From: an uncultured Gemmatimonadota bacterium
GTDB lineage: Bacteria; Gemmatimonadota; Gemmatimonadetes; Palauibacterales; Palauibacteraceae
Reading direction: 5' to 3'
Assembly (NCBI GenBank): GCA_964627425.1
Contig: CAZVIY010000011.1
Location: forward strand, 7,763 to 71,762
Length of the DNA: 64,000 nt
The position numbers and the translations under genes were made by a program. Below, in pieces: positions 3,167 to 37,140 of the stretch. Position 1 is the first letter of the stretch. The number at the start of each line of letters is the position of its first letter. A model generated the notes under the pieces. That model searched no databases and had not been told where the DNA came from. It worked only from the letters and a program-made list of their open reading frames with translations.

Positions 3167-3178
3167 GACCTCCGTAGC

Positions 3179-4201
3179 GTGCTCCGACTCGACGGCTCCC
3201 GCGGCGAGGGGGGCGGTCAGATCCTGCGGACGGCCCTCTCCGTCTCCGCGTCCACGGGGCGTCCGTTCTCCATGGACGGGATCCGGGCCGGGCGGGACCG
3301 GCCCGGCCTCCGGGCCCAGCACCTCACCGCGCTCCGGGCCACCGCGGAGGTATGCGGCGCGAGGGTGGCGGGCGACGAGATCGGGAGCCGGGAGGTCCGG
3401 TTCCGGCCGGGGCCGGTCCGTCCCGGACGGTACAGGTTCCGCGTCGGCGGAGCCGGGAGCGCGGTACTCGTGCTCCAGACCGTCCTCCCACCCCTCCTGG
3501 GCGCCGGGGACGAGAGCACGGTGGACGTGCACGGCGGGACCCACAATCCGTGGGCCCCGCCCTACGAGTTCCTCGAGCGGTGCCTGATCCCCCTCCTGAA
3601 CCGGGATACGGAACGGGTGCGGTCCATCCTCGTACGGCCGGGATTCCACCCGGCGGGAGGCGGACACCTCCGGGTCCGGGTGACCCCCGGGAGCCCCCCG
3701 TCCCCCCTGGAGCTCGTCTCTCGCGGTCCGGTCCGGGCCTGTCGCGCGCGAGCGGTGGTCTCGGATCTCCCCGTCCACATCGCCGAGCGGGAGGTCTCCA
3801 CCGCCCACGCCTTCTTGGACCTCCGTCCCGACGCCATGGAGATCGTGGAGATCGAGGATCCGCGGGGGCCCGGGAACGTGATCATGATCGAGGTGGTCCT
3901 GTCCACTCACTCCGAGGTGTTCACCGGGTTCGGCCGCAGAGGAGTGCCCGCCGAGGAGGTGGCGCTGGAAGCGTGTCGCGAAGCCCGGAGCTTTCTCGAC
4001 GCCGACGCTCCCGTCGGCCCCTATCTGGCGGACCAGCTCCTGACCCCGCTGGCACTGAAGGGTGGCGGGACCTACCGGGCCACCGGGATCACGTCCCACG
4101 CACGCAGCACGGCAGCCCTCGTCGAGGAGATGACCTGCTGCCGGATCGAGATCGAAGGGTCACCCTCCGGAGAGACGGTGCATCTCATTGGTGACCACTG
4201 A
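3179..4201 (+). CDS. rtcA: RNA 3'-terminal phosphate cyclase
   Basis: LDGSRGEGGGQILRTAL, RPGLRAQHL, GGTHNPWAPP, YLADQLL, ITSH (adenylated His region). Confidence 0.95.
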   Translation: MLRLDGSRGEGGGQILRTALSVSASTGRPFSMDGIRAGRDRPGLRAQHLTALRATAEVCGARVAGDEIGSREVRFRPGPVRPGRYRFRVGGAGSAVLVLQTVLPPLLGAGDESTVDVHGGTHNPWAPPYEFLERCLIPLLNRDTERVRSILVRPGFHPAGGGHLRVRVTPGSPPSPLELVSRGPVRACRARAVVSDLPVHIAEREVSTAHAFLDLRPDAMEIVEIEDPRGPGNVIMIEVVLSTHSEVFTGFGRRGVPAEEVALEACREARSFLDADAPVGPYLADQLLTPLALKGGGTYRATGITSHARSTAALVEEMTCCRIEIEGSPSGETVHLIGDH

Positions 4202-31698: not shown

Positions 31699-33426
31699 TC
31701 AGGATCCCGCCAGGTCCACCGTGGGAAGGAACTCCGGATCCCGCCGGACCCCGGTGGCCTGCTCGAACGCGAACGCGTACCCCAGGAGCCGGGCCTCGTC
31801 CCAGGCCCGCCCGTAGAAGCTGACCCCCACCGGCAGGCCGAAGACGTAGCCCGCCGGCACGGTGACGCCCGGATAGCCGGCGATGGCCCAGGGCGAATAG
31901 CTGGAACCGTGCCCGGAGTCGCCGTTCACCAGGTCGATGGGCCACGGCGGGCTCGACGTGACGGCGACCATGGCGTCCACGTCGTGCTCCCGGAAGGCGG
32001 CGTCGATCCCCTCCTCGCGGGACAACCGGAGGATCCTCTCCCGGGCCTCCCGGTACTCCGGGCTCTCCAGAGAATCCGTCTCCAGCGCCCGCTCCAGGAG
32101 GTCCTGCCCGAAGAACGGCATCTCCCGCTCGCGGTTCCGGCGGTTGAACTCCACCACCTCCTCCAGCGACGAGACGCCGGCGTCGCCGCCCCTCCCGGCC
32201 AGGTACCGGTCGATCCCGTCCCGGAACTCGTGGAGGAGGACGGTGAACTCTGCCGCGCCGTACTCCCCCAGGTGGGGCACGTCCGCCGCATCCACCAGGA
32301 CGGCCCCCGCCTCCTCCAGGGCTTCGAGGACCCCTTCGAAGAGCTCGTCGGTCTCCCCGGTGAAGCCGGACATCCTCGCCCGGGGCACACCGATGCGGGC
32401 TCCCTGCAGGGCGTCCGGCGCCAGGTGCCGGGTGAGGTCCGTCCGGGCCCCCTCCGGCGCCTCCCCGGTGACGGGATCGTCCGGATCGAAGCCGGCCATG
32501 GCCTCCAGCAGGAGGGCGGCGTCCCGGACCGTGGTGGCGAAGGGTCCGGCCGTGTCCTGGGTCTCCGCGATGGGCACGATGCCCGACCGGCTCACCGCAC
32601 CCACCGTGGGCTTCACGGCCACGCAGGAGTTGGCCGACGCCGGGCACATGATGGAACCGTTCGTCTCGGTCCCCACGGCCAGCGGCGCGTAGCTCGCCGC
32701 CACCGCGGCGGCCGAACCGGAGCTCGACCCGCAGGGGCTGCGGTCCAGGACGTACGGGTTCCGTCCCTGCCCTCCCCGGGCACTCCAGCCGGAGCTCGAC
32801 TCCCGGGACCGGAAGTTGGCCCACTCGCTCAGGTTGGCCTTGCCCAGGATCACGGCCCCGGCCGCCCGGAGCCGGGCCACCAGGTGGGCGTCCTCCGAGG
32901 CCCTCGTCCCCTCCAGGGCCAGGGATCCTGCGGCGGTGCTCATCCGGTCGCCGGTGTCGATGTTGTCCTTGAGCAGCACCGGGATGCCGTGGAGCGGCCC
33001 GCGGAGGCGGCCGGCCGACCGCTCCCGGTCCCGCCGGCGCGCGATGGCGAGGGCGTCGGGGTTCAGCTCCAGCACCTGCCGCAGCTCGGGACCGGACCGG
33101 TCCAGGTCCCGGATCCGCCCCAGGTAGGCCGTCACCAGCCCCACCGCGTCCAGCGCCCCGTCGGCCATCCGCTCCTGGAGCACGTCCACCGGGAGTCCCT
33201 CCAGTTCGAACGGCGGGACGGGGGCCCGCGAGGCCGCCCGGGGATCCGTCCCCCGGGCCGCACGCTCCTCCCCCGAGGATCGGGCCGCCGCGGACCCGGA
33301 CCCGGGCACCGCCGACAGGGCGAGTCCCGCGCCGCCCGCCACGGCCCGCCGGACGAAGGAGCGGCGGTCCAGCCCCCCGGGGCCGGGAGCCGGCGACGGG
33401 TCGGGCGACTCCGACCGCTCCGTCAC
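31699..33426 (-). CDS. Amidase-signature family amidase with Tat signal
   Basis: Start corrected to GTG 33426 (GTGA overlap with gdh stop). RRSFVRR signal, LHGIPVLLKDNI, GKANLSEWAN, GSSSGSA, GTETNGSIMCPA. Confidence 0.93.
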   Translation of the reverse strand: MTERSESPDPSPAPGPGGLDRRSFVRRAVAGGAGLALSAVPGSGSAAARSSGEERAARGTDPRAASRAPVPPFELEGLPVDVLQERMADGALDAVGLVTAYLGRIRDLDRSGPELRQVLELNPDALAIARRRDRERSAGRLRGPLHGIPVLLKDNIDTGDRMSTAAGSLALEGTRASEDAHLVARLRAAGAVILGKANLSEWANFRSRESSSGWSARGGQGRNPYVLDRSPCGSSSGSAAAVAASYAPLAVGTETNGSIMCPASANSCVAVKPTVGAVSRSGIVPIAETQDTAGPFATTVRDAALLLEAMAGFDPDDPVTGEAPEGARTDLTRHLAPDALQGARIGVPRARMSGFTGETDELFEGVLEALEEAGAVLVDAADVPHLGEYGAAEFTVLLHEFRDGIDRYLAGRGGDAGVSSLEEVVEFNRRNREREMPFFGQDLLERALETDSLESPEYREARERILRLSREEGIDAAFREHDVDAMVAVTSSPPWPIDLVNGDSGHGSSYSPWAIAGYPGVTVPAGYVFGLPVGVSFYGRAWDEARLLGYAFAFEQATGVRRDPEFLPTVDLAGS

Positions 33427-34856: not shown

Positions 34857-35241
34857 CTCCCAGCTCGGCCACCACCGTCACCCGCCACCGGTGGTCGATC
34901 CACACCCCCAGGGTACGCGGGCACAGGGCCCAGTCGTGGACGACGCCGGCGGCCCGCTCGATCTGACGCCGGTGCTCGGCATCGTCCACGGGATTGCCCA
35001 GGCAATCGTGATGCCCCGCCACGATCACACACTCGTGGTGACGGCGCTCGGCCAGGAAGGCAGCGTGATGCCGGGCCCGGTCCCTCTCCTCCCCTCCGTC
35101 CAGGAGGGTGCCGTCCGGCCCCGGCAGCGTGATGGTGTCCACGCGATCCAGCGCCAGCGCGTCGTCGATCCATCGCAGGAGGGGCCACTGGACACGGCCG
35201 TCCACGCAGTTCAGGGCGAGGGCGAAGGGCTCGTCGTTCAT
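34837..35241 (-). CDS. Small beta-carbonic-anhydrase-like protein
   Basis: Start corrected to MNDEPF at 35241; Zn-ligand pattern NCVDGR ... DTITLPGPD ... GHHDCLGN. Confidence 0.75.
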   Translation of the reverse strand: MNDEPFALALNCVDGRVQWPLLRWIDDALALDRVDTITLPGPDGTLLDGGEERDRARHHAAFLAERRHHECVIVAGHHDCLGNPVDDAEHRRQIERAAGVVHDWALCPRTLGVWIDHRWRVTVVAELGDDGKGG

Positions 35242-35398
35242 GGGACCTCGTCCGCTCGGAGGATCACCGCCTGACTCCTCCCGGATGATCCGGAGCCGTG
35301 GACGTCGGCGCAACGGCCGGCTCCGGGGAGGCGGCAGCGGGCACACCGATGCACCCGTGACGGACCGTCGCGGGGAGGGGAACGATGGAGGGGACAGG

Positions 35399-35655
35399 CG
35401 AAACCCCCGGGTCGCGGCACGTCGCGCCCGGGGGCTTCACTGCGCTGGCGAGCTCGGATCCTCGGTCTGGCGTCGCCCTCGTGCGGCGACCGGATCCTCC
35501 CTCTTGGGTCAGGCGTCCCTGGACTCCTCGGGACTGCGGCTGCCTCCAGCGACCTGGCAGCCGGCTCGACGGGGCCAAACTCCCGACGAGCGCCTGCCGG
35601 CCCTCGCGGACCGGCCGAGCCCGCCCTGGAGTGGTCGGCCCTCTCCCGAGCGGGA
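35399..35655 (-). ncRNA. Putative structured ncRNA, copy A (about 255 nt; family not recognised)
   Basis: Near-identical core to copy B, own promoter at 35660-35687, 5' hairpin, GCGA-capped hairpin, 3' GC hairpin with UUU; covarying substitutions versus copy B. 5' end is estimated. Confidence 0.7.
35404..35434 (-). terminator. 3' hairpin of copy A (weak intrinsic terminator candidate)
   Basis: On minus strand CCCCCGGGCGCG-acgtgc-CGCGaCCCGGGGG followed by only UUU. Confidence 0.5.
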
Positions 35656-35659
35656 CCGC

Positions 35660-35687
35660 AAGGTAGGCCGTCCGACGGAGGTGTCAA
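35660..35687 (-). promoter_or_regulatory. Sigma70-type promoter of copy A
   Basis: TTGACA (35682-35687), 16 nt, TACCTT (35660-35665). Confidence 0.65.
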
Positions 35688-35740
35688 CCCGCTGGGCCGC
35701 ACCCTGGGCCGCACCTCCGCCGGGCGCCCGGATACATACA

Positions 35741-36132
35741 CGAAACCCCCGGGTCGCGGCACGTCGCGCCCGGGGGCATCGCTGCGCTGGTGAGCTCGGA
35801 TCCTCGGTTTGGCGTCGCCCTCGTGCGGCGACCGGATCCTCCCTCTTTCCCTTCTCTCGGCTCGGCGTGCGAACTCCACGCGGTGCCCGGGCCGAAACCC
35901 GAACGGTCCTCGCTTCATCGCTCGACCGCGCAAGCGTCGAGTCAGGCGTCCCTGGATTCCTCGGGACTACGGCTGCCTCCAGCGACCTCGCAGCCGGCTC
36001 GACGGGGCCAAACTCCCGACGAGCACCTCCGGCCCTCGCGGGCCGGTCGACCGACCCTCGCGGATCGATCTAACCGGAGCTCTCGCACCGGCTGAGCCCG
36101 TTTCGGTTCAGTCGACCTTCCTCGAAACGGGC
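35741..36132 (-). ncRNA. Putative structured ncRNA, copy B (about 390 nt, with a 93-nt internal insertion)
   Basis: 35741-35847 matches 35399-35505 and 35941-36024 matches 35508-35591; perfect 10-bp inverted repeat 36096-36105/36123-36132 at the 5' end; own promoter. Confidence 0.72.
35746..35776 (-). terminator. 3' hairpin of copy B
   Basis: Same hairpin as 35404-35434, followed by UUUCGUGUAU. Confidence 0.5.
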
Positions 36133-36136
36133 CGTC

Positions 36137-36164
36137 AATATACCGTCCCGAGCCGAGCTGTCAA
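36137..36164 (-). promoter_or_regulatory. Sigma70-type promoter of copy B
   Basis: TTGACA (36159-36164), 16 nt, TATATT (36137-36142). Confidence 0.75.
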
Positions 36165-36234
36165 CGGGGCGGCCTCGCCCAGTTGGGACGGGTTCGGACG
36201 GACTCCGAAACCGATCTCTTTGTGCGGCAATCGG

Positions 36235-37140
36235 TTACGCTTCTCGCCCCTCTCCGGAGCCCCGTTCGGATCCGCCTCCGTTCCTCGCCGATGGCACCGC
36301 CGACGGACCGTCGGCCGGCGTCCCGGCGGCCGGATCACCCGTCCCGGACGAGGCGGATCCGCCCCCCGTCCCCCCCTCCTCGACGAGCGGCACGAAGCGG
36401 ACCGGGTCCAGGGGGACGCGGGTGACGGCGCCGTCGTCGGCCTTCTCCACCAGCAGGAGCCGCTGGGTTCCGCCCTGTGGTCCCACCGGGATCACCATGC
36501 GTCCGCCCGGCGCGAGCTGCTCCACCAGGGGGTCGGGCACCTCCTCCGGAGCCGCCGTCACCACGATGGCGTCGAAGGGAGCCCGCTCCTCCCAGCCGAA
36601 CCAGCCGTTGCCGATCCGGACCTCCACCGAGCCGTAGCCCAGCTCCGCGAGGCGCCCCCGCGCCGCCCGGGCCAGCTCGGGCAGGATCTCCACCGAATAG
36701 ACCTCCCGGGTGATCTCGGCGAGGACCGCGGCCTGGTAGCCGGACCCGGTGCCCACCTCCAGCACCCGGTCCCCGGGCTCGAGCTCCAGGAGCTCGGTCA
36801 TCCGGGCCACGATGTACGGCTGGGAGATGGTCTGGTCCTGGCCGATGGGCAGGGGGCGATCGGCGTAGGCCAGCCCGCGGAACCGCTCGGGCACGAACCG
36901 GTGTCGCGGCACCCGACCCATGGCCGCCAGGACCAGGGAATCCTCAACGGGCGGCCGCCGGGCCCTCTCGTCGGAGAGGCTCTCCACCAGCGCCCGCCGC
37001 TGCTCCTCGAAGTCCTGGTTCGCCGGGTCGGCGTCCTGAGCCCGGGCGCAGCTCACCGATCCCGCCCACAGGACGGCCAGCAGGCAGAGGAGGCCCGTCC
37101 CCTTCCTCACGCAGGGCCCACCGATCCCCCGGAGGGTCAT
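36235..37140 (-). CDS. pcm: Protein-L-isoaspartate O-methyltransferase with signal-peptide-like N-terminus
   Basis: Start corrected to ATG 37140 (ATGA overlap). VPRHRFVP, AYADRPLPIGQDQTISQPYIVARM, VLEVGTGSGYQAAVLA, PFDAIVVTAA. Confidence 0.93.
   Translation of the reverse strand: MTLRGIGGPCVRKGTGLLCLLAVLWAGSVSCARAQDADPANQDFEEQRRALVESLSDERARRPPVEDSLVLAAMGRVPRHRFVPERFRGLAYADRPLPIGQDQTISQPYIVARMTELLELEPGDRVLEVGTGSGYQAAVLAEITREVYSVEILPELARAARGRLAELGYGSVEVRIGNGWFGWEERAPFDAIVVTAAPEEVPDPLVEQLAPGGRMVIPVGPQGGTQRLLLVEKADDGAVTRVPLDPVRFVPLVEEGGTGGGSASSGTGDPAAGTPADGPSAVPSARNGGGSERGSGEGREA

Follow-up and report, generated by a model that had tools for sequence, protein, structure and literature searches.

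Two similar non-coding copies, here called A and B, lie head to tail on the minus strand of a 64-kb window (a stretch of 64,000 nucleotides [nt] of contig CAZVIY010000011.1, from an uncultured Gemmatimonadota bacterium). They are located between pcm, encoding the protein-L-isoaspartate methyltransferase (PCMT; stop at 36235), and Pro_CA_2, encoding a “putative carbonic anhydrase” (CA; start at 35242), which is followed on its 3′ side by a glutamate dehydrogenase (GDH) gene, a tRNA-Ala gene and an amidase gene. We consider it probable, with a likelihood of roughly 60%, that the interval holds two tandem paralogous minus-strand genes of one structured small non-coding RNA (sRNA) family that is unmatched in Rfam and acts in trans.

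A repeat finder relates the two copies through a 107-nt block at 96% identity and a 95-nt block at 93% identity, and the indels between them measure 1, 44, and 91 nt. Copy A, the short form of about 255 nt, is placed at 35399 to 35655, and copy B, the long form of about 390 nt, at 35741 to 36132, with its start set from the −10 position and its 3′ end from the terminator; the RNAs themselves would span about 35655 to 35400 and about 36132 to 35742, respectively. These and all further coordinates in the window are on the minus strand unless stated otherwise. Copy B exceeds copy A by two 5′ hairpins and by a 91-nt insertion that is missing from A in the A/B alignment (35848 to 35940), referred to below as the variable domain. 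Read from its 5′ end, copy B consists of the hairpin P0, three GNRA hairpins with the loops GAGA, GCGA, and GCGA, the hairpins P2, P3, and P4, the variable domain, a 3′ module, and a terminator.

The window has a G+C content of 70 to 76%, and high G+C keeps reading frames open, such that a protein-coding gene might have been missed here, or the repeat might be without function. Long open reading frames (ORFs) do overlap the region (321 amino acids [aa] on the plus strand and 231 aa on the minus strand), and one such ORF was predicted by the gene caller in the related contig L082. However, the skew expected of coding sequence is absent: the G+C fraction stays at 0.70 to 0.74 across the three codon positions of each of the six frames, compared to 0.91 to 0.92 at third codon positions of the neighboring genes. 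In addition, the indels between A and B break the frame, a Pfam search of the ORFs overlapping the RNA region returned no match, the spurious peptide encoded by the RNA found no match in a large protein collection, and conservation exceeds that of the flanking genes. A coding or non-functional origin is thereby left very unlikely.

Transcription signals and the downstream operon

Each gene would be transcribed from its own sigma-70-type promoter. For copy B, a consensus scan recovers a −35 element TTGACA (36164 to 36159), a 16-nt spacer, and a −10 element TATATT (36142 to 36137), together spanning 36137 to 36164 and matching the consensus at 11 of 12 positions; the region holds one such site, against 0.0 expected from shuffles, and the promoter is identical in the near-identical strain L081. 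The candidate promoter of copy A (35660 to 35687) was read from the sequence, as TTGACA (35687 to 35682), a 16-nt spacer, and TACCTT (35665 to 35660), and falls under the threshold of the scan; its counterpart in L082 is TTGACA-16-TATCTT. Each transcript would begin with a 5′-terminal hairpin and stop at a G+C-rich intrinsic terminator. In copy A, the latter is predicted as CCCCCGGGCGCG-ACGUGC-CGCG(A)CCCGGGGG followed by UUU (35401 to 35434), and copy B has the same hairpin form followed by UUU (35776 to 35743). The tract of three U is too short for the consensus scan. In L083, a more distant relative, the terminator stem is fully paired despite an inserted base and two substitutions, through compensating changes.

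The position of the RNA invites a second reading, in which it would act in cis, as a leader or tandem riboswitch with a terminator that governs read-through into the Pro_CA_2/GDH/amidase operon: it lies directly upstream, on the operon strand, in every relative, and a large structured domain is followed by a terminator. However, the operon appears to have a promoter-like element of its own downstream of the terminator and outside the RNA (TTGCGC, 17-nt spacer, GATCAT; 35285 to 35313). This element is near-identical in seven of seven relatives (TTGCGC or TTGCGT; GATCAT or AATCAT), while the spacer around it varies in both length and sequence and places it about 60 to 190 nt after the terminator. 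Because the operon keeps its own element and the spacer is variable, a leader or riboswitch role is improbable and the RNAs are better understood as independent units. Further points against a leader are that each copy has a candidate promoter of its own, with the terminator of copy B preceding the promoter of copy A, that an anti-terminator alternative is not evident, and that no Rfam riboswitch reaches its gathering score, the sole match to a riboswitch family, Guanidine-III (12.8 bits, E = 9.2), being well short of its threshold and outside the RNA genes.

Several observations concern the neighboring genes. The tRNA-Ala(CGC) gene (33191 to 33261), between the amidase and GDH genes, sits inside a spurious 1010-aa ORF. 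The C terminus of PCMT (36235 to 36380) is a low-complexity tail of approximately 45 residues rich in Gly, Ser, Ala, and Pro, which is unmatched in related PCMTs and kept in L081. Finally, a gene for RNA 3′-terminal phosphate cyclase (RtcA) is located 31 kb from the RNAs, at 3167 to 4201 on the plus strand; no Ro/Rsr or RtcB gene was seen near it, so that a Y-RNA-like link is not evident.

Relatives and conservation of the RNA

The RNA could be compared across four full-length and two partial sequences, all from the window or from short metagenome contigs that belong to a single uncultured lineage of high G+C; five relatives of the small Pro_CA_2 protein and one relative of GDH led to these contigs. 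The closest, L081, is a near-identical strain (CA protein, 99%; CA gene DNA, 97%) with one copy between pcm and Pro_CA_2 (L081:700-1005). This copy joins a 5′ half of type B to a 3′ end of type A and lacks the variable domain, which is explained either by a deletion, through recombination between the tandem copies, or by a collapsed assembly. L082 (CA protein, 87%) carries two tandem copies, a partial long one upstream (core at 1 to 110) and a complete short one, L082-A′, to which copy A is 93% identical over 259 nt. The contig L083 (CA protein, 59%) begins inside the long-form domain and preserves the 3′ 178 nt of a long-form copy. Four further contigs begin in or just after the terminator hairpin, namely L084 to L086 (CA, 59 to 60%; L084:1-25, L085:1-26, and L086:1-10) and L093 (GDH, 77%; L093:1-41), which suggests that the 3′ module is repeated, in at least two copies, in those genomes too.

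The variable domain is also present in the upstream copy of L082 and in the L083 copy, that is, in the long forms of three species, and is therefore likely to be old rather than a recent insertion. When it was compared for covariation between copy B, L083, and the upstream copy of L082, no convincing helix emerged. The 3′ module stands out by its conservation: the 107-nt block is 99% identical between copy B and L082, compared to 91 to 93% for the CA and GDH genes and 83% for the downstream spacer, and the module is 90% identical to that of L083, compared to 71% for CA and 80% for GDH. By these identities, the 3′ module evolves more slowly than the genes that flank it, which points to purifying selection. 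Synteny of the RNA with the Pro_CA_2/GDH operon is kept among the relatives.

Outside these contigs the RNA was not recovered. Exact 25- to 28-mer patterns drawn from it had no match in collections of genome, metagenome, or viral contigs, and blastn returned nothing from plasmids and a 33-nt chance match alone from phages. Loci collected by PCMT all came from unrelated phyla (≤66% identity), and the RNA was detected in them by neither blastn nor nhmmer; the window and about 1.08 Mb of fetched loci contain no further copy. In alignment scans of genome and metagenome contigs, all other relatives of Pro_CA_2 were at ≤44% identity, and loci of GDH relatives at ≤68% (L115 to L117) had neither a CA gene nor the RNA. 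The source lineage lacks a close representative in the genome collection: the neighboring proteins have relatives of at most 55 to 68% identity among GTDB representatives (PCMT, 66%; tricorn protease, 55%; Pro_CA_2, 43%; named GDH, 67 to 68%), with best matches scattered over Balneolaceae, Saprospiraceae, Rhodothermaceae, Longimicrobiales, and others, in the FCB group and other phyla.

Local hairpins and proposed long-range contacts

The fold is predicted to be mostly a string of local hairpins, comprising P0, the GNRA hairpins (one in A, three in B), and P2, P3, and P4, after which would follow the optional 91-nt domain and then the highly conserved 3′ module, with P6 around P7 and a 10-nt bulge. 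Minimum free energy (MFE) z-scores against dinucleotide shuffles are −3.3 for copy A and −2.9 for copy B. P0 pairs CCCGCUC with GGGCGGG at the 5′ end of copy A (35620 to 35654) and GCCCGUUUCG with CGAAACGGGC in copy B (36132 to 36096; stem compared as CCCGUUUCG/CGAAACGGG). Between A and B, two of its pairs switch from C-G to U-A on both sides and one switches from U·G to U-A, and L082-A′ shows a further C-G to U·G change. The hairpin with the GCGA tetraloop, of the GNRA type, is located at 35596 to 35615 in copy A and at 36047 to 36028 in copy B. An earlier, sequence-only reading of this stretch had noted a U·G pair in A at 35610 and a C-G pair in B at 36042; these are the bases present, and L082-A′ has C-G together with one G·A mismatch. 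P2 (GCUCGUCGGG/CCCGUCGAGC, invariant loop AGUUUGGC; 35564 to 35591) has pair probabilities of 0.92 to 1.0 in three of the four full-length sequences and of 0.004 in L082-A′, where a single U-A to U·G change is found.

The hairpins P3 (CGGCUGC/GCAGCCG with a 13-nt loop; 35537 to 35563) and P4 (GUCCC/GGGAC with the loop GAGGARUCCA; 35515 to 35534) are invariant in all four full-length sequences. In the upstream copy of L082 the core has strongly diverged, P3 is not maintained, and two of the five P4 pairs are broken. The 3′ module (35456 to 35497) is formed by P6 (GGAUCC/GGAUCC), which encloses P7 (GUCGCC-GCACGAG-GGCGAC) and the 10-nt bulge GCCAGACCGA. P6 reads GGACCC/GGGUCC in L083, a U-A to C-G compensatory change by which a seventh pair is also gained. 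Taken across the alignment, the predicted helices P0 and P6, the GCGA hairpin, and the terminator are backed by compensatory or wobble changes and P2 by one wobble change, and P3, P4, and P7 are invariant. We suggest that the RNA family has its functional heart in the 3′ module, because the L082 upstream copy keeps this module and the variable domain while its core lacks support for P3 and P4.

The sequence-only reading had assigned the RNA to the minus strand on the basis of three wobble changes, and its bases all occur where it had placed them in both copies. This orientation is correct and can now be put on firmer ground, given the promoters, the terminators, and the well-supported helices with G·U pairs. 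The wobble changes point the same way: where U·G is exchanged for C-G or U-A, as in P0, P2, and the GCGA hairpin, the plus strand would have A·C mismatches.

The same reading had proposed that covariation between the two copies supports a long-range helix, GGYGCUC/GAGcuCRCC. Its 5′ strand in copy A is GGCGCUC (35588 to 35594, varying base C35592), which overlaps the 5′ arm of P2, and its 3′ strand is GAGCUCGCC (35447 to 35455, varying base G35449). Copy A would pair GG(C35592)GCUC with GAGCUC(G35449)CC and copy B GG(U36025)GCUC with GAGCUC(A35791)CC, and this exchange of C35592-G35449 for U36025-A35791 is the sole double change in the helix. We assessed it by shuffling the 12 A/B substitutions over 218 aligned positions (approximately 70% G+C) among positions of the same base in 20,000 trials. 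At least one double change from one Watson-Crick pair to another within a potential helix (at least 4 contiguous pairs) arose in 57% of trials, and a helix of the observed quality (at least 4 contiguous pairs and at least 8 bp with one bulge) in 14.5%. The double change thus lies within chance, so that the proposed covariation support does not hold; thermodynamic folding disfavors the helix as well. A deeper alignment of the same columns, to which the sequence-only reading had looked for confirmation, adds no independent event: L082-A′ has U and A as in copy B, and L081 has U and G. Copy A, L081, and L083 share G at the distal position (35449/35791), where copy B and the two L082 copies carry A; the distal strand of L083 is GACUUCGCC, with the 5′ partner off the contig.

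Two models were compared on the four full-length sequences. The one containing the long-range helix is 99.6% paired with one both-sides change, a value that 256 of 500 column shuffles also reach. The local alternative, with P1 (AGGC/GCCU) and the full-length P2, with both of which the long-range helix competes, is 99.1% paired and has no both-sides change. Four sequences cannot tell the two apart. At least three partners can be put forward for the GGYG segment, namely the GCCU after P4 (MFE fold of copy A), the distal CRCC, and a GCGC in CCAGCGCAG (RNAalifold). Forcing the long-range helix costs 4.8 to 8.5 kcal/mol, and the helix receives pair probabilities of about 0 in three sequences and of 0.17 to 0.19 for the outer three pairs in copy B.

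The second contact proposed was a pseudoknot between the P2 loop and a distal segment. GUUUGGC in the 8-nt P2 loop (35580 to 35574 in A, identical in B) is invariant, and its partner reads GCCAGAC in A (35471 to 35465) and GCCAAAC in B. This GCCARAC segment belongs to the conserved bulge of 10 nt that separates P7 from the 3′ arm of P6 and that no nested model pairs; with the loop, the segment would form a duplex of about −10 kcal/mol. The complementarity of loop and target is conserved, but covariation is absent (A/G opposite U is the sole change), and a 7-nt complement to the loop with at most one G·U pair occurs in 13 to 16% of dinucleotide shuffles. In addition, the segment after P4, S1, reads GCCUGAC in the window, GCCAGAC in L082-A′, and GCCAAAC in the L082 upstream copy, such that S1 complements the loop in the L082 copies and provides a second, equally good target in L082-A′. 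We regard the pseudoknot as no more than plausible.

Together, the two contacts would make a compact pseudoknotted RNA, in which a closing helix encloses core and 3′ module alike, with a kissing contact between GUUUGGC in the P2 loop and GCCARAC in the bulge. That the helix pairs in all four full-length sequences speaks for such a fold (as C-G in A, as U-A in both B and L082-A′, and as U·G in L081). The sequence-only reading had staked its helices on homologues not breaking these pairs freely; the long-range helix indeed never breaks, but L081 contributes a wobble from a possibly chimeric copy. The outer 3 bp (GGU/ACC) are present in the MFE fold of copy B, and a rival upstream partner, GGCGGGCUC, is perfect in copy A alone, a C·A mismatch in L082-A′ and B freeing the distal strand there. 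The loop and bulge are invariant and are single-stranded in all other models. The single evolutionary event behind the helix is nevertheless at chance level (15 to 57% of permutations and about half of the column shuffles), the helix overlaps four P2 pairs, and its energetic cost and pair probabilities weigh against it, as do the chance frequency of the loop complement and the second loop target in L082-A′. We consider formation of the long-range helix doubtful, and hold the same view of the compact pseudoknotted fold as a whole. Less likely still is the broader proposition of a new class of compact tertiary RNA, serving as a ribonucleoprotein (RNP) scaffold or in catalysis or ligand binding, in which closing helix, kissing contact, and GNRA tetraloops would all form, the short A and long B would have distinct roles, and the RNA would be confined to an FCB-like lineage without a close representative in GTDB r232.

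Known RNA classes and possible functions

At gathering thresholds, Rfam 15 yielded no match in the whole window. In a permissive search of 35200 to 36400, the best match was twister-sister (RF02681; 36010 to 36081, 23.1 bits, E = 0.031), which together with the GNRA tetraloops and the possible pseudoknot, both suggestive of tertiary structure, could hint at a self-cleaving ribozyme or other catalytic RNA. However, this covariance-model match in copy B stays below the gathering threshold of 34, one of its stems does not pair in the cmscan alignment, and the matched extra GNRA hairpins are absent from copy A and L082-A′ and hence are not a feature of the family. We judge a catalytic RNA to be highly improbable. 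6S RNA, which folds as a rod closed by pairing of its 5′ and 3′ ends around a large central bubble, was rejected, given that the 5′ end here forms its own covariation-supported P0, that the predicted folds are multi-branched, and that the Rfam 6S models are unmatched. A tRNA-like RNA or tmRNA was likewise rejected, with no ARAGORN match in the RNA region.

Tandem “sibling” sRNA genes include PrrF1/PrrF2, OmrA/OmrB, and AbcR1/AbcR2, whose products of about 80 to 150 nt are Hfq-dependent base-pairers with defined seeds. As a class they have been reviewed (PMC4211561). At the sequence level, the locus shows the same organization: adjacent homologous genes in head-to-tail order, each with promoter-like hexamers and a terminator hairpin, a short spacer between them, a common module, and diverged flanks. 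The RNAs described here differ from these siblings in being 255 to 390 nt long, multi-hairpin, and GNRA-capped, without a recognizable seed or Hfq-type tail, and they share no sequence or Rfam relationship with them. A second comparison is offered by CsrB/CsrC, RsmX/Y/Z, and CrcZ, protein-sequestering sRNAs with reiterated loop motifs, modular hairpins, and paralogous, sometimes tandem, copies. With these the present RNAs share a comparable size, modular hairpins with a recurring motif (here CGAG or CGAGG), paralogous copies, and what would be strong-promoter expression. In contrast to the Csr/Rsm RNAs, the GGA/ANGGA motif is unenriched, and no CsrA, RsmA, or Crc partner was identified, leaving the comparison an analogy alone. 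A CsrA-sequestering (Csr/Rsm) sRNA was accordingly rejected as a candidate, GGA not being enriched; no CsrA domain was found among the scanned ORFs of the window, in a scan that was not exhaustive.

The recurring motif far exceeds the genome background in both copies: CGAG occurs 14 times in copy B against 3.1 expected and 6 times in copy A against 2.1, and CGAGG 8 times against 1.4 and 4 times against 0.9, respectively. It is placed mostly at the junction of loop and 3′ stem strand, and hairpins bearing it recur four to eight times. Over 35399 to 36132, GAGG is about 2.7-fold enriched and CCUCC does not occur. We favor a probable trans-acting RNA over a leader of the neighboring operon, because the RNAs are large and heavily structured, have a strong candidate promoter, appear to grow by modular addition of hairpins, and carry the recurring CGAG(G). 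Within this reading, and by analogy, a role as a protein-binding sponge or scaffold may be favored over mRNA base-pairing, with low confidence, the two being about as likely.

In the base-pairing variant, sibling sRNAs would regulate mRNAs in trans through an exposed segment, be it the GCCARACCGA bulge, the P2 loop, or the GAGG-rich stretches. The free-standing tandem genes with promoter and terminator resemble the reviewed siblings (PMC4211561), short conserved single-stranded segments are present, and the conserved synteny with the Pro_CA_2/GDH operon fits as well. Against this, RNAs of 255 to 390 nt with heavy structure exceed the typical size of base-pairing sRNAs, a C/U-rich anti-Shine-Dalgarno seed is absent (as the lack of CCUCC illustrates), the 3-U terminator tract would be poor for Hfq-type binding, and there is no conserved target complementarity in the neighboring 5′ untranslated region, which is itself unconserved. 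Regulation of this kind is a tentative alternative that we place well below an even chance.

Several points weigh against the interpretation as a structured, trans-acting RNA family. The sequences available, four full and two partial, come from one narrow lineage, and most helices never vary. Thermodynamic predictions differ among homologues, with P2 at 0.004 in L082-A′ and >0.9 in the others, and the RNAalifold consensus presents yet another core fold, which we did not adopt since it shows almost no covariation. The core fold may even be dispensable, since the upstream copy of L082 does not maintain P3 and P4. For both RNAs, the transcription start and the 3′ end are inferred. The enrichment of CGAG(G) was recognized post hoc and is partly a by-product of the duplicated GNRA (GCGA) hairpins, while GGA, the CsrA-type motif, occurs 8 times against 8.2 expected from dinucleotide shuffles in copy A and 12 times against 13.4 in copy B. 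No candidate partner protein was identified.

The comparison of the two copies also carries a caution, namely that in an RNA of 72% G+C chance alone is about as likely as not to produce one “compensatory” change between two paralogues, and a single double change of this kind is no ground for asserting long-range helices. What is new here is the RNA family, while its kind, tandem paralogous bacterial sRNA genes, is already known. As a conserved RNA gene pair unmatched in RNA libraries, it adds an orphan structured-RNA family, and its repeat breaks the assemblies of the source lineage at a specific locus. If tertiary contacts or a protein partner prove true, the two modular isoforms, short and long, would offer an attractive system in which to follow how an sRNA grows by the addition of hairpins.

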